This document shows, in pieces, positions 9,944 through 21,449 of a stretch of 37,855 nt of DNA. Location of the stretch: the NCBI GenBank assembly GCA_964462555.1, contig CAYWXY010000005.1, forward strand, positions 1 to 37,855, read 5' to 3'. The stretch's first letter is position 1, and each line of letters starts with the position of its first letter. Both the position numbers and the translations under genes were made by a program. Origin of the DNA: an uncultured Pseudomonadota bacterium. GTDB taxonomy: Bacteria > UBA10199 > GCA-002796325 > CAYWXY01. Below the pieces are notes generated by a model that searched no databases, had not been told where the DNA came from, and worked only from the letters and a program-made list of their open reading frames with translations.

Positions 9944-12442
9944 ATGAAGCTCGGTTTTGAAGCCACTTCACCAATTGGTAAGCTCTATCACGATATCAAA
10001 CAAAAATGGATCGATTCGGGAAGGTCGGAGACCGATTTTTTCAAAGAGATCGACCAGGGGTGTGTCGGCAATATCGATCTTTATCCCACGGCGACGAATC
10101 AGAAGGGAGTTGTCGATCAGTGTGAGGTCTTCGAGATTGGCTATCGTTTCAAGGATCTTCACTCCGTCTTGGCCAAACATGGTTATCGACTACCATTTGG
10201 ATTTAATGATTATGACCCGAAGACGACGATTGATGCCAAACTTCAAAAAGAGCTTCAAAAGGTGGCGGCAAGTTTCAAGGCGCAGGTGATCGCCGATGGA
10301 ATGAAAGAGGGGTCCAAGGAGTACCGCTTTGCTGTGGCAAAAAAGATTTTCGGTTGGGCGGATAAACATCTCGATTTTAAACAGGATTGTAGAACCGAGT
10401 TTGTTGATTGGAAGGCTCTTGCTCAGTCGTGTGGCCGATGTACCGAAATTGCGAGCATTGTCTACTTTCTCTGCCAAGAGGCGGGACTCGATCCTACATT
10501 CATGTTAGTTGACAACCATGAACCAACCGTAAAGAACTATAATGCCTACTCTGCCTTTTCATGGGATCTGAATCGCCCAACGCTTGAAACTCATGTCTTT
10601 GTTGCTATTCCATATCCGACGAAAGATAAGCTCTTTCACCTTGATACAACGGGTAGTGTTAAATTTGGGCACTTTTTTTCAGAGGCAAAAAAGATGACAC
10701 CGAGTCAGTTTGCACTTATGTCGTATCGAAACCACATGATTCACTCTCATCAGAACTATGGAGAGGGTGAGCCGTTTGACCATGCAGCACTTGAGAGGAT
10801 GCTAGACTTGGAGCCAACAGAGGTTTTTGTCCCATTCCAGAAGGCACTTTATGAGTTGAATAACTATTTGTCGTCTGATGCTGTCGGGGACATCTCAGCC
10901 GCCAGTATAGAAAAGGTCTTTGGTCATCCAACACTTGATGGTGCTCCCAATCATCGTTTAGCAGTCGACATCCTCTTGGTCGTTTTGGCCTTCTTTGGTC
11001 AAAGTTCGGCAGCTCTTAATCAAGCGTTTAAACAATTGCACACGGATCTTCATACGCTGGAGTTGGAAAATTCTAAGGCGGCCACGGCATATTCCCTCTA
11101 TGCAGCCGAATTGGTTGTGAGAATATCAGCGATCTTGGCTGAAAATATTGCCATGTCTCAAGAGGTGAAGGAAGGGCTCTCGCAGCTTCATCAGATGGCA
11201 CTGCACTTTTTATCGCCGGCCATTCGTTGGAATCCGAAAGAGATGAGGGCTCATTGCTATATCAATCATCTCAACATTTCTCCCAAAGAGCTGCACGAAT
11301 TTTATTCTGAGCTAAGTGAAGAAGAGCCCAATAATCAACTGGCCAGGTATTTTAAAATTATGAATGGATTAGTGCATGCAGGGAATCTCAATGAGGAAGA
11401 GGCTGCTCCGGTTATAGAGGAGATTGAAGGTGATATTGCTAAACTCAAAGATCCAAATGCAGCGCATGTTTCGTTTATTAATGCACAGATCAATTTTTTC
11501 AAAAAGAATTTGGATGCGGTGAAGGTCCATTTAGATGCGATCAAGGATCAGGAGTTTGGTTCGGTCTCTGCAGGTTACCACGCCTTGATGTTTTTCTATT
11601 GCATAGCTACAGAGAACTATTCTTTGGCCAAAGAGACAGTTAACAAATTGTTCGATGAAGAGCCCCATAATGGGCGACTCTTTTTTGCGCGTTTTATGAT
11701 GCACAACCTTCGGGAGATTCGACTGAATCTTGGGAGCGTTGGGGCTGCGGGTAATGTTGGCGAAAGTGGTCAGATGGATCTCTTTGTCTGGATGGCTGAT
11801 CGGATTGCGGAGAAAGAAGATCTTGAGTCTCAAGTAGTCGTCATCTATTCGCTTCTCTATCTCATAAGTCTGGACCCCTCTTCGGAACATAAGCATCAGG
11901 AGAATATCTATAAAAAGATTTCGGGCAAGATGACGGAAGAAGCCCGGATGGCCGTCAATTATCTTCTCTTCAGACTCTCTCACAATATGTTCGAAAAAGA
12001 GATTAAGATTGATGACACGTCGGTGTCAGATGCACACTTCTACCTCGAAGAGAGCGCTAAAATTTTGGGTGAGCGGGAAAAGTATCCCGGTTACATCCAA
12101 CTTTGTCTCCAGGCTTTTCGTACCGCTATTGAGGCGAGTGATGCGGCACTCGCCAAAGAGATGATCGCTATTCTTGCTCACGCGGAGGGTATAGCGACGC
12201 TCTTTTACGACCATGTCATGAAACAGGTTACTGAACCCCTCTTTGGAGATGACAATCTGACCACGAAAGAGATTCAAAGAGTCATTCTTTTTTCACGCGC
12301 CATATTGTCAGAGAAAGGCGCCGCCTCTAAGGAGCTTCTTAATCTCAAGGGATTTGCGGGTGTCATGGAGGGGGCGATCGAAAAAGTCGATAAGGCCTTC
12401 CATTCAAAGTGGAAGCAAATCATCATTGAATTGAGAAAGTAG
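9944..12442 (+). CDS. Transglutaminase-like (Cys-His-Asp) domain protein with long helical/TPR-like C-terminus
   Basis: GRCTEIASIVYFLCQEAGL, THVFVAI and FHLDTT match the spacing of a transglutaminase-like core. GGGAGG RBS. No signal peptide. Confidence 0.65.
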   Translation: MKLGFEATSPIGKLYHDIKQKWIDSGRSETDFFKEIDQGCVGNIDLYPTATNQKGVVDQCEVFEIGYRFKDLHSVLAKHGYRLPFGFNDYDPKTTIDAKLQKELQKVAASFKAQVIADGMKEGSKEYRFAVAKKIFGWADKHLDFKQDCRTEFVDWKALAQSCGRCTEIASIVYFLCQEAGLDPTFMLVDNHEPTVKNYNAYSAFSWDLNRPTLETHVFVAIPYPTKDKLFHLDTTGSVKFGHFFSEAKKMTPSQFALMSYRNHMIHSHQNYGEGEPFDHAALERMLDLEPTEVFVPFQKALYELNNYLSSDAVGDISAASIEKVFGHPTLDGAPNHRLAVDILLVVLAFFGQSSAALNQAFKQLHTDLHTLELENSKAATAYSLYAAELVVRISAILAENIAMSQEVKEGLSQLHQMALHFLSPAIRWNPKEMRAHCYINHLNISPKELHEFYSELSEEEPNNQLARYFKIMNGLVHAGNLNEEEAAPVIEEIEGDIAKLKDPNAAHVSFINAQINFFKKNLDAVKVHLDAIKDQEFGSVSAGYHALMFFYCIATENYSLAKETVNKLFDEEPHNGRLFFARFMMHNLREIRLNLGSVGAAGNVGESGQMDLFVWMADRIAEKEDLESQVVVIYSLLYLISLDPSSEHKHQENIYKKISGKMTEEARMAVNYLLFRLSHNMFEKEIKIDDTSVSDAHFYLEESAKILGEREKYPGYIQLCLQAFRTAIEASDAALAKEMIAILAHAEGIATLFYDHVMKQVTEPLFGDDNLTTKEIQRVILFSRAILSEKGAASKELLNLKGFAGVMEGAIEKVDKAFHSKWKQIIIELRK

Positions 12443-13962: not shown

Positions 13963-13989
13963 GCAACTTTTTGAGAATGCGATCGATAA
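13963..13989 (+). promoter_or_regulatory. Putative sigma28-like promoter GCAACTTT-N-ATCGATAA
   Basis: GCAACTTTTTGAGAATGCGATCGATAA, 50 nt upstream of the 14040 start. Confidence 0.55.
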
Positions 13990-14039
13990 GCTATCAAATG
14001 GGGGAGGCAATTCTATGATTGAAGTAAAGGAGCATCTAT

Positions 14040-16301
14040 ATGACCGACCCAAAGATCCAAAGCCTCTCATCCAAAGTTTGCCAAACCTTGACGAGCAATG
14101 CGGAGAGCCAGAAGGAATGTCAAGGTCTCGCTGGCCTGCACCTTGGTGACTCAGATCGCACTTTTTGTAAGCCACCCGAGAATAAAACATCCTCAGATCT
14201 GATTCGTTGTTTCCGGAATAATATGGATAGCTGGGCATCGACTTACGATATTTCGGTGGGCGATGGTGACGAGGTGATCCGTATTCCCAATCGTGTTTAT
14301 TGGAAATTCTTTGATACGGTTAAGGGTAGTGTCCCACGGCTTCCAGATCTGAACAAGGTCTATGATGAGGTTGTCGTTCTCTATTTTAAGCAGCAGTTCA
14401 TTGTGAAGACATATGCCAATCTCGCCGAGATTGGATTTAAGAACACACCCCTAACGGCCAAGACAAGGGAGGCCGGTGACGGGGATGAGGCTGAGATAAC
14501 GGTCCATCGGGTCGAAGAGAAGGCCGTCGTCATGTGGAAGACGCTGCAGGATATAATTGCCAAGAATGCGAATAAAGAAGAAGAGAATAAGGTTTATGTC
14601 ACGTGGCCAGGGCCTGACAAAGATAAGCCCATAACTGTCCTACTCTCAAAGATTACAAGCGATATGAGTTATGCTGAGATGGTTGAGATGTCGAAGGCCC
14701 AGTTTCTCTTTATGAAGAGAGCGGTTATTAAAATAGTTGAGAGCGAGGAGAAGGAGGCGCGAGCCGCCGGGAATGTTGCTTTAGCGAATGATTTCAAGGG
14801 AAGGGCTGAAGAACTGAAGAGTCAATCATTTGAATTTCCTTATAGTGAGGCTGAACTGGCTGAAAGACTGCACATGGGTATCCAGGAAGTGGCCGATGCC
14901 TACTTTTATATCATCCAAGACAATATGCCGCTCAAGAATCCAGAGAAGAGCAGTGTGGAAAAGAAGGCCCTAGTCCTTGATGTCTCTGGCGAAAAGTACA
15001 GTGTGGGTAAAGAGACAAAACTTTTGGCAAAGAGCTATTGGGTGACGGGTGGGAAGCCGACGAGTCTTGATGAGGTGAAGGCCGTGGGCGATGCTGTTAT
15101 AAATTTGACGCGACGGACAGGGATGAAGAATAAGGTAAAGGTTCCCCCCGAAATTGGAGACAAGCCCAAGACTCTCTCCGGAAGCATTTCTGGCGAATAC
15201 AGTACCGCTGGTTCAATGGCGCCAAACCTATTTGCCGACTTGAAAATTGCGATGGTTGGGAATCCTAAGGAAGGTTTTTTTCTTCAAGGAAGAATTTCGG
15301 CCCTATATCTTGATCAACATCCTGGAACGGTTCATCCCGATGGTCCGGTTTCAACGGCTGATGATGTAGCGAACCCCAAGGAGTCGCTCCAGATTATCTA
15401 TGCATATCTCATGGGACAATATGTTTTTGATAACAAGGTCAGGCTTCACGGTAAGGCCGGCGTTGTTGATCCGCGAAATCGAACGACACCGGGAATCGCC
15501 TTTGATCGTTTGCACCAGGGAAATGGTGAAGGGCAATATCAGGTTGGTCGAATTACGGGAGCTACTCTGGGTGTCGATATTCCCCTTCAATCAGACGCCG
15601 AGAAGCCAATTTCGATCGGCGTAGAGACAAGCTTGGGCGCTAGCGGAAATCCCATGATCTATAAGGAGAATGTTCCGGGTGATGAAAAGCCGAATACGTA
15701 TTGGTTTGATAAGGATATGGGCGGGGGTCGATTTGTAAACACGGGTCGTGTGCGACTCTTTAAGAATCCCCACGATGAATATGATAGCTGGCTCGAGTCG
15801 ATGAATTTGTCGTTGGGTTGGGAGGTTAAAAGAGGCAGAGGCGATGAGCCAACAAAGAGCAAATTTGGAATTATTGGGGAGGGACTGTTTAATGTAATTC
15901 CGGAGAAGCAATTGCTTCAGGTGGGTGCCGGTTTTTACTTCGATTATGGAGATGAGATTCTGGATGGTGGCGTTAGCGGACTTGTTGGTCTGAACCCCTG
16001 GAAGTGGCTCAAGCTTAAACAGTATGTCACGTATGGATCGAGTGGCCGTACGTATAATTTTGGTCGCGTCGACGGGCCCAAGGGACCATTTGATCATTCG
16101 GTTTCTGTTAAAATCAAAAGTCTTTCCTGGGCGACGCAGGCAACGATCGGCCCCTTCGAGGGTATACCGGTTCTCGATAGTTTCGAATTCTTTCTCCAAT
16201 ATATGGGTGAAAAAGGGATGGAGGCCGAAGAGGGACACTCTTCTGCCCTCAGAGGAAAGGCCGTTAATAGCTTTGGAGTGGGCGCCACAGCGACATTTTA
16301 G
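14040..16301 (+). CDS. Leaderless protein: 4-Cys N-terminal domain + helical region + C-terminal porin-like beta-barrel (paralog A)
   Basis: AAGGAG RBS with an in-frame TAA at 14025. The C-terminal half has alternating amphipathic strands and ends FGVGATATF. Clear homology to 16495-18701. Confidence 0.75.
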   Translation: MTDPKIQSLSSKVCQTLTSNAESQKECQGLAGLHLGDSDRTFCKPPENKTSSDLIRCFRNNMDSWASTYDISVGDGDEVIRIPNRVYWKFFDTVKGSVPRLPDLNKVYDEVVVLYFKQQFIVKTYANLAEIGFKNTPLTAKTREAGDGDEAEITVHRVEEKAVVMWKTLQDIIAKNANKEEENKVYVTWPGPDKDKPITVLLSKITSDMSYAEMVEMSKAQFLFMKRAVIKIVESEEKEARAAGNVALANDFKGRAEELKSQSFEFPYSEAELAERLHMGIQEVADAYFYIIQDNMPLKNPEKSSVEKKALVLDVSGEKYSVGKETKLLAKSYWVTGGKPTSLDEVKAVGDAVINLTRRTGMKNKVKVPPEIGDKPKTLSGSISGEYSTAGSMAPNLFADLKIAMVGNPKEGFFLQGRISALYLDQHPGTVHPDGPVSTADDVANPKESLQIIYAYLMGQYVFDNKVRLHGKAGVVDPRNRTTPGIAFDRLHQGNGEGQYQVGRITGATLGVDIPLQSDAEKPISIGVETSLGASGNPMIYKENVPGDEKPNTYWFDKDMGGGRFVNTGRVRLFKNPHDEYDSWLESMNLSLGWEVKRGRGDEPTKSKFGIIGEGLFNVIPEKQLLQVGAGFYFDYGDEILDGGVSGLVGLNPWKWLKLKQYVTYGSSGRTYNFGRVDGPKGPFDHSVSVKIKSLSWATQATIGPFEGIPVLDSFEFFLQYMGEKGMEAEEGHSSALRGKAVNSFGVGATATF

Positions 16302-16350
16302 TTAATAAATTCAACTAGTTATAGTTTTTTGTCATTTATTGAAAAAAATA

Positions 16351-16377
16351 GCAACTTTTTTGGAAGAGAAGCGACAA
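16351..16377 (+). promoter_or_regulatory. Putative sigma28-like promoter (distal) GCAACTTT-N-AGCGACAA
   Basis: GCAACTTTTTTGGAAGAGAAGCGACAA, same spacing as the other copies. Confidence 0.45.
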
Positions 16378-16417
16378 CGGAGCAGATGATCAAGAGGTCC
16401 AAAACGAAAAAAAGTTA

Positions 16418-16444
16418 GCAACTTTTCCGGGTGAGGGCCGACAG
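16418..16444 (+). promoter_or_regulatory. Putative sigma28-like promoter (proximal) GCAACTTT-N-GCCGACAG
   Basis: GCAACTTTTCCGGGTGAGGGCCGACAG, 50 nt upstream of the 16495 start. This is the same distance as for paralog A. Confidence 0.55.
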
Positions 16445-16494
16445 AACAGTGTGGGGAGCGAAACGATAAACATCTTTCAAAAAGGAGTTCATGT

Positions 16495-18701
16495 ATGACC
16501 GACCCCAAAATCCAAAATGTTAGCGCTCAGATCTGTCAATCAATGACAAGTGGTAAGACTGCTGTACAGGAGCAATGTCAGGAGAGAGCGGAAAGAGCGT
16601 TGAATGATACGGGTAGAACCTTTTGCACAGCCGCCGATAATGAGACTGACGCGAAGATGGTTCAATGTTTTCAAAAGGAAACCGATAGTTGGGTAGGAAC
16701 GACCAATGTGACAGAGCCCGATGGATCTGGCGGAAGAGTCACGATTGCTTCGTTCTCAAACGATGTCCTCTGGAAATATATGTCATTTATTAATCGGAAG
16801 GTTCCACGTCTTCCCGATATTAATCAGGTCTATGAGGATGTCATCGGCAAATTTGTTGAGGATAGATCGGTTTTATATGCCTATACCGATTTGGCGAAGA
16901 TGGGGCTTGATGGTACCGCGTTGACGGTTAAGGAGAATGGCACATCGAAGAGTGTCACTGATCCGCAAGAGCAGGCCGTTTTTATGTGGGCCCGCCTCCA
17001 AAGTGTCATTAAGAAAAACGAGAATCCCGAAACAAAAGACGAGGACAAGGTTACGGTTAAATGGAGCTATGAAGTAGACGGTGAGCCGGTGGATACAGAG
17101 GTTACACTTGGTCGGATCACTGGTGATATGGATTACAAAGAGATCACCGATATGTCCAAGGCCTATATTGTTTATATGCAAAAAGAGATCATCGGACTTT
17201 TGACAGCTGGAAAGGAGCGGCACGATGCAGCCGGTGAGACGGCTGACGCTCAAGGCTTACAGACCAAGATCACAGCCCTTTCTAATTGGGATTACAAGTT
17301 CCCTTACACTGAAGCTGAGATGGTCGAGATGCTCGAGCCAAAATTGGAAGAGATTCGTTTGGCCTATTACTACATGATGCAGTCTAAGATGCCGAATGAA
17401 GAGGGCTCGGATAAACAAAAACAGCTGACCATCGATCCAAAGGGTACTAAATATGGTGAGGATGAGAAGGATCTTGCCAAGAGTTATGTTGTAACAGGTG
17501 GCAAGCCGAAATCACTCAGAGATATGATGGACGCTAATGCCGCTCTGCATACTCTGATTCGCACTACTGCTAAAGATGGTGGTGTTGAAGTTCCAGCCGA
17601 GCCAGGCGAAGGTAGAAAAGTTGTTTCTGGTGAACTCGGTGCCGAGATTGGAAGCGCTGGTTCGCTGGCATCGAATATCTTTGGTGATTTAAACATCGCT
17701 ATTCTTGAGAAGAATGGTTGGACGCTGGGTGCCAGAATTACGGCCCTCTATCTCGATCCGCACGCTGGTTATGTCCATCCAGAAGGTCCCGTCTCAGATG
17801 CCGATGATATTAGCAATCCTGACCCATCGCTTCAGATCCTTTATATGTATCTGAATGCGTCTTATACATTTAAAAAGAGCGGTATCAAGCTTTACGGTAA
17901 GCCGGCACGATGGACAACCGAAACCGGACAACACCATGGATGGCCTTTGATAGACTTCACCATGGAAATGGTGAGGGTGGTCAGATCATCGGACGTGACA
18001 CGGGTGTTCGAGTTGGTGTCGATATTCCGCTGGGTGGCAGTAAGGGTAAGAACCATATCGCGGTTGAGGCCTCGGTTGGTGCGCATGGAAATCCGATGTT
18101 AGCACCGAAGGCCTACATGTTTGATGAAGACAAGGGTAAAGGACAGTTCGTTCATACCGGACTCGTGAAAGTTTATAAGCCAGCACCGAAGGATGGATTT
18201 GATCATATCGTTGACGCCTACAATGCCAAGTTGGGTTGGGTCGTTACCGGTGATGGTATCTATCATGTAAATGGTATTCTTGAGGGTAAATTCAACGTCA
18301 TTCCAAAGAGCCGTATCCTTCAGATCGGTGCGGGTGTCCATCTCGGTTATGGTGATGGCTCCTTTGATTGGGGTGTGGGTGGTATTACGACCATTAATCC
18401 TCTTAAGTGGTTGGAGTTCCATGGTTTGGTTGCCTACGGGACGAGTTATCAAACGCTTAATATGGGTACGGTGGATACACCCAATGGTCCTCAGGATCTC
18501 TCGATCAATAGTGGTGAAAAGGTATTGAGTTTTGGCCTACAGGGCTACGTCAAACCACTTCATATGTTCAAGGGTTTTGAAACCCTGAAACTGGGTATTG
18601 TTTATGAGGCTATCGGTGGTCAAAAGGCCGAAGAGCATAAGGCGTCAGCGACAGACGAATTCACACACGGTGTCATGGGTGTTGTTGGATACGAATTCTA
18701 A
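16495..18701 (+). pseudogene. Paralog B of 14040-16301, split by a 1-nt deletion near 17901 (pseudogene or assembly error; ~735 aa if restored)
   Basis: ORFs 16495-18102 and 17910-18701 align consecutively to paralog A. A has GGT AAG GCC GGC, while B has GGTAAG-CCGGC. Ends VMGVVGYEF. Confidence 0.8.
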
Positions 18702-18752: not shown

Positions 18753-21449
18753 ATGAAAAATACAATCTGGAACGTAACAACGAAAACAGTCATCGGTTTG
18801 ATCATTGCAGTCTTCGCGGCAGCATGTTCCGACGGTGGCCATGCAAATGTAACGGCCGTCACGCCGGACATTGCTCCTCCAGCGATCACATTTGGGATCG
18901 GCCTAGAGGGTGCAGAGAAGCCGACAGATACAGCAGTCAGTATTGATGCTGGTCAATCCGTCGTTCTCTATTGGGAAGTTATTGGTGCCCCGGCTGGAGA
19001 TGAGGCTGACAAGGCTTCTGAAAAGGCGGATGATGCCGAGGCGTCAGAGGATGGCCCAGTTATTGCCATCTCGATCGACTCGAAAGAGCTCGGTTATCAT
19101 AAGACTGATTTGAAAGCGTCGGATAGCCTGGTTGTTCCAAATGTAACCGTCGATGCCAGTTTTATTTTAACGGCCGTCATTGAGGGTGCGGTTCCCGCAT
19201 CAGAGACGGTTCGTGCGTCGATCAAGGTTGCCGGGTTTAAGGTTGTTGAGACACTTGAATTGACGGCCTATCCTGAAAAGATTGTTCGTGGTGGATCTTC
19301 AGAGCTTTGCTGGACGATTTCACCGGCCGATGCAGGCTATGAAGTGACCGATGAGAATGGTAACATTGTTGCGATTCCGACACATGAGGCGACAGAGGCA
19401 GAGGTTGAAGAAGAAGCCGCGGAAGCGCTTGAAGGCGAAGAGGAAACCGAAGAGATGATTGCTTCGGGCAAGGCCTCTTACGCAGGAGAAGAGGGTGAAG
19501 AAGAAGAGGTTGAAGAGAACACCGAAGAAGATGCCGAAGAGGCAGAAGCTCCTTCAACCTCCAAAGGATGTGTTGTTGTGACACCAGAGGTAACCACAAC
19601 TTATTTCATTGATGCCGAAGATGGAAGCACTGATAATGTGACCATCGAGGTGATGGATGAAGTGACGATTACATCTTTTAACGCCACGCCGGAAACAATT
19701 TCAGGCGAGACGGAAGTTAGGCTTAGCTGGAAAGTTGATCCTGCCGAAGCAATCGTGACCATCAGTCCGAAGCTGGATGGTCAGGAATTTGAGTCCGAAG
19801 GGGAAACAACCGTAACAATTAGTGAAGAGACGACCTTTACGATCAGTGCTGTGTTGCCTGGTTGTGAAGAGTGCGCCGATCAGAAGACCTTTACGGTTGT
19901 CCTCGAGCAGAGGGGTGAGTTAGCCGTTGATATTACAGCGTCGACACAGGTTATCTTTGCCGGTGAAGAAGCAGAAATTACCTGGCAGGTTGTTGACCGT
20001 ACAAATGGTACAAATGTTTCGAATGCCAACATGATTGTTCGTGGTGGCAGTTTTGGTCTCGAGGGTGAGACGCGTGAATCAAGTGGTACGATGATTCTTC
20101 GTCCAACCGAGACGACCGAGTATACATTAGAGGCTTCAGCTGGTAGCGGCATTATTGTTCCTGAGAAGCTTAAGATTATTGTTCGGAACTGGGATGGCCC
20201 GAGTGCAGCGAATGTTAGCGTTGATAGTGAAGCAGAGAAGACACAGCTCGTGACATCTGTTGCCGCGTCGACGGTCTCTACGGACATTATGTATGCTGGC
20301 TTTGCTGGCAAACTCGACAGCGATGGTCAGATCAAGTTGGCCAAGGGTTCCGGTTCATACTGGAGCACGCTTGAGATTAATTTTCTCAGTGCCTTCAAGG
20401 GATTCAATGATGGTTATGGTGCGATGAATAATAATTATCTGAATGAAGTCGACTATCCGGTCAATGCGATTGCAGTTGATTTGGAAGATGAGAAGACACT
20501 TTATGTTGCAACGTCAGGTGGTGTTGTGAAGTCGACTGATGGTGGCGCTTCGTGGTCGCTCTTTCTCCGTCCCTTTATGTGGGCGAAGGATAGCAACTAT
20601 ACCGGTTCGCATGCGAGTTGTGCGGGAACCGAGCAGAAAGGTTGGAAGGATTGGACGATCAACGCCCTTCAGCAGGTCTGTGATATCGTGATTGCAAAAG
20701 ATGGTACGATTGTTGTGGCCTCAGATCACAAGGTTGCAGTGGCTGCTAAGGATGCGGAAGATTGGACCGATCCCGTTGCGGATGCTCCGGTCTACGGCAT
20801 TGTCAATCATGATCTTGAATTAGCAGAACTTGACGAGGGTAAAGAGACCCTGTTCGTGGGTACCTCCGAAGGTATCTATGTTAGCACTGATATGGGTGCT
20901 TCGTACGAAGCGATTGGTGGTGCTGGTGCACCAGACACAGATGTCTATACCGTTAAGGTTGACACGGCAGCTGGTAAACTTTATGCCGGTACGCCTGAGA
21001 TGGTTTATACCTGCACGCTGAGTGCTGATGGTTGTTCGGCCTGGTCAAACCAGATTGTCAGTGGCGGCGTATTCAGTATCGCTCTTGATCCGATTCAAGC
21101 CGGTAGCGTTTTTGCCGCGACGGCACAGGGTGTTTATTACAGTGCCGACGGCGACAGTTGGAAAGATGTGACTGCTGAGCCGATGGCGACGGGTGTGACG
21201 GTTCGCAGCATTGCCTCAACAATGGTTGATGATGGTGCCAAGGGAAGTGTCTACATCGCAACGTCAGATGGTGTTTTTGTGACGACGTCTGAGATTCTTA
21301 CGGACAAGAAGGATTGCAAGAATCCTCCCTGTCCGAAGCCAACGGATGATGCTCCTGAAGAAGATCCGGAAGAGACACCGGACGAGGAGAATCCACTTGA
21401 AGATGGTGAAGAAGATGGCGCAGCAACAGTGAATGGTAATCTCTTGTAA
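18753..21449 (+). CDS. Large acidic surface lipoprotein with Ig-like repeats and C-terminal Asp-box (BNR) beta-propeller
   Basis: Lipobox FAAAC. Repeated A.P..I..G....L.W units. Glu-rich insert. Asp-boxes VKSTDGGASW, YVSTDMGASY and YYSADGDSW. Confidence 0.75.
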   Translation: MKNTIWNVTTKTVIGLIIAVFAAACSDGGHANVTAVTPDIAPPAITFGIGLEGAEKPTDTAVSIDAGQSVVLYWEVIGAPAGDEADKASEKADDAEASEDGPVIAISIDSKELGYHKTDLKASDSLVVPNVTVDASFILTAVIEGAVPASETVRASIKVAGFKVVETLELTAYPEKIVRGGSSELCWTISPADAGYEVTDENGNIVAIPTHEATEAEVEEEAAEALEGEEETEEMIASGKASYAGEEGEEEEVEENTEEDAEEAEAPSTSKGCVVVTPEVTTTYFIDAEDGSTDNVTIEVMDEVTITSFNATPETISGETEVRLSWKVDPAEAIVTISPKLDGQEFESEGETTVTISEETTFTISAVLPGCEECADQKTFTVVLEQRGELAVDITASTQVIFAGEEAEITWQVVDRTNGTNVSNANMIVRGGSFGLEGETRESSGTMILRPTETTEYTLEASAGSGIIVPEKLKIIVRNWDGPSAANVSVDSEAEKTQLVTSVAASTVSTDIMYAGFAGKLDSDGQIKLAKGSGSYWSTLEINFLSAFKGFNDGYGAMNNNYLNEVDYPVNAIAVDLEDEKTLYVATSGGVVKSTDGGASWSLFLRPFMWAKDSNYTGSHASCAGTEQKGWKDWTINALQQVCDIVIAKDGTIVVASDHKVAVAAKDAEDWTDPVADAPVYGIVNHDLELAELDEGKETLFVGTSEGIYVSTDMGASYEAIGGAGAPDTDVYTVKVDTAAGKLYAGTPEMVYTCTLSADGCSAWSNQIVSGGVFSIALDPIQAGSVFAATAQGVYYSADGDSWKDVTAEPMATGVTVRSIASTMVDDGAKGSVYIATSDGVFVTTSEILTDKKDCKNPPCPKPTDDAPEEDPEETPDEENPLEDGEEDGAATVNGNLL

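Follow-up and report, generated by a model that had tools for sequence, protein, structure and literature searches.

The 37,855-nucleotide contig CAYWXY010000005.1 of an uncultured marine bacterium (GenBank assembly GCA_964462555.1), which we refer to as the window, encodes two adjacent proteins, paralog A and paralog B, that are best explained as tandem members of a very rare family of envelope proteins built of two parts. The window corresponds to the entire contig C5 of the metagenome bin G000 (2.51 Mb, 227 contigs, 90% complete). Universal primer patterns detected no 16S rRNA gene in this bin. Each of the two genes stands behind a genuine promoter of the sigma-28 type, neither protein begins with a signal peptide, and residues 373–753 of A likely form a β-barrel of the outer-membrane type, as judged from structure models. 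As a tentative explanation we favor export of both proteins by a type III secretion system, independently of Sec, followed by insertion of the barrel into the outer membrane of the producing cell.

A sequence-only reading of the window had already described these genes as tandem paralogs. It pointed out that both proteins open with an identical MTDPKIQ after an AAGGAG ribosome-binding site and that an in-frame stop at 14025 bars a longer form of A, and all of this is evident from the DNA. The AAGGAG of A lies 7 nucleotides (nt) before the start codon and overlaps the stop codon TAA, and therefore the N-terminus of A cannot be longer; in B the start codon at 16495 follows an identical hexamer, and no in-frame start exists further upstream. 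BLASTP alignments of A and B show 40% identity across the N-terminal 472 residues and 44% across the C-terminal 265. Each common motif that had been quoted (VPRLPD, FPYxEAE, LAKSYxVTGGKP, ALYLD..., RNRTTP, AFDRLHxGNGEG) lies within these alignments. The four cysteines that had been listed, at positions 14, 27, 43 and 57 of A and 14, 28, 44 and 58 of B, turned out to be the sole cysteines of either protein, and both chains end in Phe as described. The sequence-only reading overlooked that B is frameshifted at 17899–17901 (see below).

The claim that both proteins lack a signal peptide also held. All leader calls in this analysis are based on a hydropathy heuristic rather than on a SignalP-type predictor. 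With this heuristic, the maximal Kyte–Doolittle mean over 15 residues within the first 70 residues is 0.07 for A and 0.13 for B, and no hydrophobic stretch is apparent at either N-terminus. Averaged over 19 residues, hydropathy peaks at approximately 1.0 along the full length of both proteins. Among 1.84 billion representative proteins a search returned, apart from A and B, only two distant relatives: P0003 (717 residues, E = 4.5e-8) and P0004 (786 residues, E = 1e-7). Both relatives have an N-terminus without a hydrophobic stretch, retain all four cysteines and contain a Gly-rich C-terminal half. In no family member does a 15-residue mean exceed 0.9 within the first 70 residues. Hence the question whether homologues ever carry leaders was answered with none in four family lineages, and the leaderless state is kept across 21–45% sequence identity. 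Besides the four cysteines, residues D3, Q24, R40, F42, F58 and W65 are invariant in all four lineages, and M1 is conserved as well.

The C-terminal ends of the four proteins (A: ...GATATF, B: ...VVGYEF, P0004: ...WENIGF, P0003: ...LTVSAW) share an aromatic last residue, F or W, and match the full β-signal consensus with its Gly at a fixed position only loosely. The Gly content of the C-terminal half ranges from 12.5 to 15.5% across the lineages. Beyond these relatives the family could not be extended. Neither A nor B matched a Pfam or NCBIfam family; word-indexed searches with A alone and with the family alignment recovered the query itself only; the family alignment had no match in 92 other genomes of the phylum and A had none in 40 relative genomes; and a sequence profile search against the PDB gave nothing at E up to 1. 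The N-terminal alignment found no relative in genome and metagenome contig collections, and the intact form of B (P0007, see below) found nothing in the metagenome contig collection, with records near the source genome possibly excluded from these searches.

As a control we inspected the proteins of the same genome that contain Omp85 or secretin domains. Classical leaders are present in eight of these nine open reading frames (ORFs), and five of six Omp85 matches end in F. Sec leaders are therefore what this organism uses for its ordinary outer-membrane proteins, from which A and B deviate. The single exception within the control set is a 786-residue ORF (C55:7165-9525, + strand) that matches Omp85 weakly and in part (31 bits) and has neither a leader nor an aromatic C-terminus. 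The Omp85 profile (PF01103) matches seven other places in the genome; A and B match neither this profile nor POTRA domains.

To describe the fold of A we rely on two AlphaFold models. Model 1 comprises the whole protein and was built from 5 alignment rows; its mean predicted local distance difference test score (pLDDT) is 55. Residues 100–370 are modeled at pLDDT 65–90. This part had been described as a helical region of about 300 residues, and in the model it is indeed mostly helical, with three β-hairpins in addition. Residues 373–753 fold into approximately 16 long strands that close to a barrel at pLDDT 25–58. Model 2, which contains the C-terminal half alone, again shows 16 strand elements (pLDDT 48); since the alignment rows are common to both, the two models are not independent. 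The proposal that the C-terminal half is a transmembrane barrel is supported by a closed barrel of about 16 strands predicted with low confidence, and we regard the barrel as likely. In a Foldseek search against the PDB all 50 rows listed are outer-membrane barrels, with OmpU as the best match (E-value 1.6e-6). VIA-align, run against 48,161 chains, matched model 1 with OprB (4gf4; Z 16.5, root-mean-square deviation (rmsd) 4.0, 257 residues aligned) and CdiB (6wil; Z 16.4), and model 2 with PgaA (4y25; Z 16.4) and OprB (Z 15.8). These matches span the entire barrel domain, and the match to CdiB and FhaC is not better than that to porins. Most strands in the C-terminal half of A have alternating hydrophobic and polar faces, and the Gly content of this half is 13.9% as compared to 5.1% in the N-terminal half. 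The Atlas tool listed YgjJ, TprD and DUF5777 as feature look-alikes of the barrel at 0.91–0.92, which by the tool's own notes is weak evidence, and gave no usable match for residues 1–372.

These observations also bear on the view that A and B are not membrane barrels but cytoplasmic or otherwise soluble β-rich proteins, in which the four cysteines would bind metal and the barrel would be an artefact of weak modeling. Such a view could draw on the low pLDDT of the barrel in either model, on an Atlas recognition score of 2213, which falls under the usual threshold of 2300, and on the cytoplasmic appearance of many genes that share the promoter of A and B (a DnaJ-PilZ protein, a glycosyltransferase and a QueG-like protein among them). 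We consider it unlikely, because the same domain closed in each of two separate runs and covers whole solved barrels at Z of about 16, because the strands alternate in polarity, and because Gly-richness and the aromatic end recur in all four lineages.

The promoter in question is a bipartite box, GCAACTTT-N13-CGATAA, with a −10 part of the sigma-28 type. The sequence-only reading had placed a motif exactly 50 nt upstream of each gene; this is the distance from the end of the −10 part to the ATG for the copy of A (13963) and for the proximal copy of B (16418), in which the box itself begins 77 nt before the ATG, and a third copy was found at 16351. With a spacer of 11–14 nt the genome contains 63 copies of this motif, whereas 30 permuted-box controls gave 0.63 copies on average and never more than 3. 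Spacer length peaks sharply at 13 nt, with 50 copies, as compared to 10 copies with 14 nt and 11 with 15 nt. Most copies (49/63) are located 20–300 nt, and mostly 36–102 nt, upstream of the start of an ORF on the same strand; six of the 63 lie within ORFs. Of 93 genomes belonging to the phylum, 92 contain the motif at 2–68 copies each, whereas the control read backwards occurs 0–1 times. Many copies in the genome read GCCGATAA at the −10 position. A recent structural study names this sequence as the −10 consensus that sigma-28 promoters commonly share and TCTAAAG as their −35 element (PMC12784957). The −10 part of A reads TCGATAAG, and the two copies in front of B read GCCGACAG and AGCGACAA and are weaker. 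Upstream of the two genes no sigma-70-like promoter was found on the + strand. The region contains seven sigma-70-like sites where 6.8 are expected, and the one site on the + strand (18733) precedes the next gene. A + strand terminator was not found in the A/B region.

Downstream of the motif we counted 48 distinct ORFs in the genome (loci L018–L063), which we define as the regulon. A hydrophobic N-terminus is present in 4 of these 48 ORFs, as compared to 714 of the 1986 ORFs outside the regulon (p = 2e-5, Fisher test), and Pro amounts to 7.8% of the first 30 residues versus 4.5% in the others (p = 2e-5). Outside of the window, 34 of 46 regulon ORFs have no Pfam family (E up to 1e-4) and 12 have one. 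Leaderless members include proteins with OmpA peptidoglycan-binding, Chlam_PMP repeat and subtilase domains, which are usually extracytoplasmic; one of them is a 443-residue protein (C10:27097-28425, + strand; L021) with an OmpA-family peptidoglycan-binding domain, for which periplasmic action is expected. The regulon may represent a repertoire of secreted proteins. Its ORFs are mostly large, and many start with sequences rich in Pro, Lys, Arg and Gly, such as MGGPKIPKRL..., MAGPGGPKPV... and MPPVKNGKSIV.... Two further FHA/YscD-like proteins and the DnaJ-PilZ protein also belong to this set.

It is also conceivable that A and B are ordinary outer-membrane proteins, which travel by Sec or another known route with a cryptic, non-hydrophobic or internal signal, and that the type III connection described below reflects mere co-regulation of envelope genes. 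The four regulon ORFs with normal leaders or lipoprotein signals, which show that the regulon is not exclusively leaderless, and the proximity of SecA to the gene for the type III export gate protein on contig C26 would fit this proposal. Against it stand the low N-terminal hydropathy of every family member, the conservation of the leaderless state over considerable sequence divergence, and the textbook leaders that this genome's other barrel proteins and its secretins carry. Taken together, we judge this possibility as a rather unlikely one.

Another regulon member resembles A and B in its layout. This 315-residue protein (C63:2418-3362, − strand; L044) lacks a leader and combines four invariant N-terminal cysteines with an acidic and Gly-Lys linker, a Gly-rich, strand-like C-terminal half and the end GVTF. 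Together with three homologues (66–99% identity) it shares the start MSTIG.IC, the four N-terminal cysteines, the leaderless state, the Gly-rich, strand-like half and the GVTF end. The idea that the four-Cys module of A and B is homologous to that of the C63 and C9 proteins found no support (hhalign probabilities of 0.2% and 1.3%), and a hidden Markov model of the A/B N-terminus gave no further significant match in the genome. At the level of sequence, the C63 protein and A/B appear alike in design, with homology unsupported.

The best FliA/WhiG-like match of the genome (127–130 bits) is a sigma factor encoded within a type III secretion cluster on contig C41 (C41:1-16382; L073). The order of genes in this cluster is YscJ/FliF (349 residues), sigma factor, FliG, FliH/SctL, ATPase, YscO, FliK/HpaP, FliM, FliN, FliO, FliP, FliQ and FliR. 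Three small ORFs without a family (125, 139 and 169 residues) flank the sigma factor, and one of these could encode an anti-sigma factor. The gate protein FHIPEP is encoded on contig C26 near a YscD-like FHA protein, and SecA also adjoins this gene. Flagellin, rod or hook genes were not found in the genome by searches in which the positive controls matched. Likewise, needle and translocon genes were not found, in a search that had no positive control; the needle profile PF09392 matched neither this genome nor any control genome, so this result is uninformative. None of the three secretins of the genome reaches the cut-off for a type III secretin. Across the phylum FHIPEP is present in 91 of 93 genomes and rod or hook proteins in only 11 of 93. 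In combination with the wide distribution of the promoter, these counts suggest that a type III system of the non-flagellar kind, together with a sigma-28-type regulon of its own, is a core trait of this phylum.

Late flagellar substrates depend on sigma-28, and the arrangement described here suggests how A and B may be handled by analogy. The C41 sigma factor would read the GCAACTTT-N13-CGATAA promoters, and the type III export gate would take the products of the regulon, A and B included, as its substrates. Type III substrates lack a Sec signal and carry an export signal in their N-terminal 20–30 residues; the sequence-only reading had suggested that the conserved start of A and B may be a secretion signal. 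Both proteins could pass the inner membrane unfolded through this gate and bypass Sec, as late flagellar substrates do under sigma-28. In the periplasm the Cys region may be oxidized, and genes of the DsbA family are present in the genome. The β-barrel assembly machinery (BAM) would then insert the barrel, most simply into the outer membrane of the same cell. Given the barrel model, the leaderless homologues, the leaders on Omp85 proteins and secretins, the Sec-poor regulon and the linkage of sigma factor and type III genes, we consider Sec-independent export a reasonable inference. To this extent we agree with the sequence-only reading, which had proposed that the two proteins reach a periplasm without Sec; for the destination, which it had tentatively sought in a prey or host cell, the cell's own outer membrane provides the simpler explanation. 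Export by a different leaderless route with no relation to the type III cluster, such as type I or type VI secretion, vesicles or lysis, is very unlikely: nothing speaks directly in its favor, with no search of this genome aimed at such systems, A and B contain no RTX-type repeats and match no family of any kind, and the connection from promoter to sigma factor to cluster points toward type III secretion.

Everything in support of Sec-independent export would apply equally to an injected pore. In this scenario the type III system passes the leaderless barrels to another cell, and they are inserted by the machinery of the recipient, that is BAM in bacterial prey or the TOM/SAM complexes (translocase of the outer membrane; sorting and assembly machinery) in eukaryotic mitochondria, while oxidation in the recipient periplasm or intermembrane space locks the Cys region. 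The patchy, lineage-specific occurrence of the family, which had no match among the 92 other genomes of the phylum, would be typical of effector cargo. As a loose parallel, a needle-less type III-like system is reported to be needed for prey lysis in Myxococcus xanthus (PMC10849154; PMC12075869), and two further papers describe bacterial barrels that are able to reach and enter host mitochondria (PMC12757748; PMC2759283). Nevertheless we regard injection as improbable. The search described above detected no needle or translocon gene and no secretin up to the type III cut-off; the delivery of barrels covered in the review relies on vesicles and not on injectisomes (PMC12757748); and A and B end in F like the Omp85 proteins of the same genome, which is consistent with self-insertion.

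Several points weigh against our preferred explanation, type III export followed by insertion into the cell's own outer membrane. To our knowledge no outer-membrane barrel passes through a type III gate, and the central step would thus be without precedent. A full-text literature search for a signal-less outer-membrane barrel tied to type III secretion surfaced a single paper, on Perforin-2. Co-regulation with a secretion system is no proof of being its substrate, and A and B do not show a marked Pro enrichment: their MTDPKIQ start is unlike the Pro-rich N-termini common in the regulon. The C41 sigma factor scores under the FliA/WhiG family cut-off (127 versus 189.6 bits), the upstream box GCAACTTT differs from the −35 element of sigma-28 promoters (TAAA / TCTAAAG), and no FlgM-like anti-sigma factor was found in the genome. 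The barrel itself is predicted in both models at a pLDDT of 25–58 from 4–5 sequences with common alignment rows. Finally, given the completeness and fragmentation of the bin, genes that were not found may be unassembled.

Textbook outer-membrane biogenesis begins with Sec. If our explanation is correct, conserved leaderless barrels would point to a second route of entry into the periplasm beside this Sec-first pathway, and likewise to a first set of natural cargo of a needle-less type III system. Were the barrels injected into other cells, they would represent the first injected β-barrel effector. Even if export proved to be conventional, the data describe a new protein family, a phylum-wide promoter and a regulon of approximately 50 genes of mostly uncharacterized function.

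In the window B is not a single open frame. Homology to A in the first frame stops at codon 469; this frame stays open, out of register, until the stop at 18102, and homology to A resumes in another frame. The NCBI annotation of contig C5 accordingly splits B into two pieces of 535 and 194 residues. The intact form, P0007 (735 residues), is known from other assemblies, belongs to the same 90% cluster and reads ...KLYGKAGTMDNRNRTTP... across the break. We compared this region with Logan contigs of four seawater/marine metagenome runs from two studies, in which depth is only about 3–6. None of the 8 runs listed in all is an RNA data set. Contigs from runs X1 and X3, which are possibly one data set filed twice, contain one additional A behind 17898 that restores the frame, and contigs from runs X2 and X4 end at 17900. 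Among the contigs of the four runs none spans the break in the form seen in the window. Since frame-restoring contigs exist and no spanning contig supports the window's form, we conclude that the frameshift, which falls on a short run of A, stems from a slip of the assembly or from a minor allele and is not a property of the gene. A programmed frameshift can be ruled out, since GGT AAG CCG is no slippery heptamer and intact DNA exists. At position 14503, within A, the window reads T and the contigs of all four runs read C, in agreement with the Val-to-Ala difference between A of the window and the cluster member P0005.

The coordinates of all features are collected in Table 1. Two neighboring genes may be mentioned. 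An 832-residue ORF (9944-12442, + strand) without a leader and without a Pfam or NCBIfam family is located approximately 1.6 kb upstream of A; an aminotransferase gene in opposite orientation lies in between, and for the ORF itself no copy of the promoter box was found. On the other side, 52 nt past B, starts a gene for a probable lipoprotein of 898 residues (18753-21449, + strand) with a leader ending in ...AAACS. This protein contains long acidic, Glu-rich stretches and gave a weak match to F510_1955 glycosylhydrolase (67.9 bits, under the cut-off). No terminator was found between B and this gene, which might be co-transcribed with B.

Table 1. Positions of the A/B genes, their predicted parts and their control elements in the window.
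Feature	Position	Strand	Basis or remark
Promoter of A: GCAACTTT, 13 nt, CGATAA	13963-13989	+	Sequence, genome-wide pattern
In-frame TAA (14025-14027) overlapping AAGGAG ribosome-binding site (14027-14032)	14025-14032	+	Upstream of A
Paralog A	14040-16301	+	753 residues, intact
N-terminal leaderless four-Cys region of A, residues 1-68 (C14, C27, C43, C57)	14040-14243	+	Cys invariance, low hydrophobicity
Middle domain of A, residues 69-372, mainly helical with β-hairpins (predicted)	14244-15155	+	Model 1
C-terminal β-barrel domain of A, residues 373-753, ~16 strands, ends ...GATATF (predicted)	15156-16298	+	Models, fold matches
Distal promoter copy of B: GCAACTTT, 13 nt, CGACAA	16351-16377	+	Sequence
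Proximal promoter copy of B: GCAACTTT, 13 nt, CGACAG	16418-16444	+	Sequence
Paralog B, first frame; residues 1-469 homologous to A	16495-17901	+	Sequence comparison
Frameshift site in B	17899-17901	+	Window AA, intact copies AAA
Paralog B, second frame: remaining barrel, ends ...VVGYEF and stop	17901-18701	+	Matches C-terminal part of intact P0007

Finally, we compared A and B with known systems. The solved barrels that are most similar to the model of A (OprB 4gf4, the porins 1e54, OmpU and OmpT, PgaA 4y25, CdiB 6wil and FhaC 4ql0) have sixteen strands, and residues 373–753 of A cover them end to end with Z of 14–16.5 and an rmsd of about 4 Å over 250–285 residues. Like outer-membrane barrels, this domain combines strands of alternating faces with a high Gly content and an aromatic end. 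Unlike these barrels, A has no detectable sequence relation to them, no signal peptide, and a 370-residue N-terminal extension with four cysteines. The Treponema Tpr/MOSP proteins, of which TprD scored 0.91 in Atlas, share with A and B the succession of an N-terminal non-barrel domain and a C-terminal barrel. However, Tpr proteins have signal peptides, and A and B match neither MOSP_N nor MOSP_C of Pfam.

Porins that enter mitochondria, such as PorB of Neisseria and OmpA of Acinetobacter and Chlamydia, provide examples of bacterial barrels that are put into a foreign membrane by conserved machinery (PMC12757748; PMC2759283; PMC12890168). Unlike A and B, these proteins are not leaderless but Sec-exported, vesicle-borne residents of the outer membrane, and the review separates them from injectisome effectors (PMC12757748).

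With the late flagellar regulon of sigma-28 (FliA) the genes described here have in common the −10 sequence GCCGATAA (PMC12784957), a FliA/WhiG-like factor encoded among genes similar to FliG, FliH, FliI, FliM, FliN, FliO, FliP, FliQ and FliR, and products mostly without Sec signals. The differences are that no flagellin, rod, hook or FlgM was found in this genome, that the −35 box is GCAACTTT and not TCTAAAG, and that the cargo consists of 48 mostly uncharacterized proteins instead of filament parts. By description, the gene set is also similar to that of the T3SS* of Myxococcus xanthus, which is reported to consist of type III basal-body genes without a recognizable needle or translocon in a non-flagellated cell (PMC10849154). 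The system described here differs from T3SS* in that it is phylum-wide (FHIPEP in 91/93 genomes) and possesses a sigma-28-like factor of its own together with a defined promoter.

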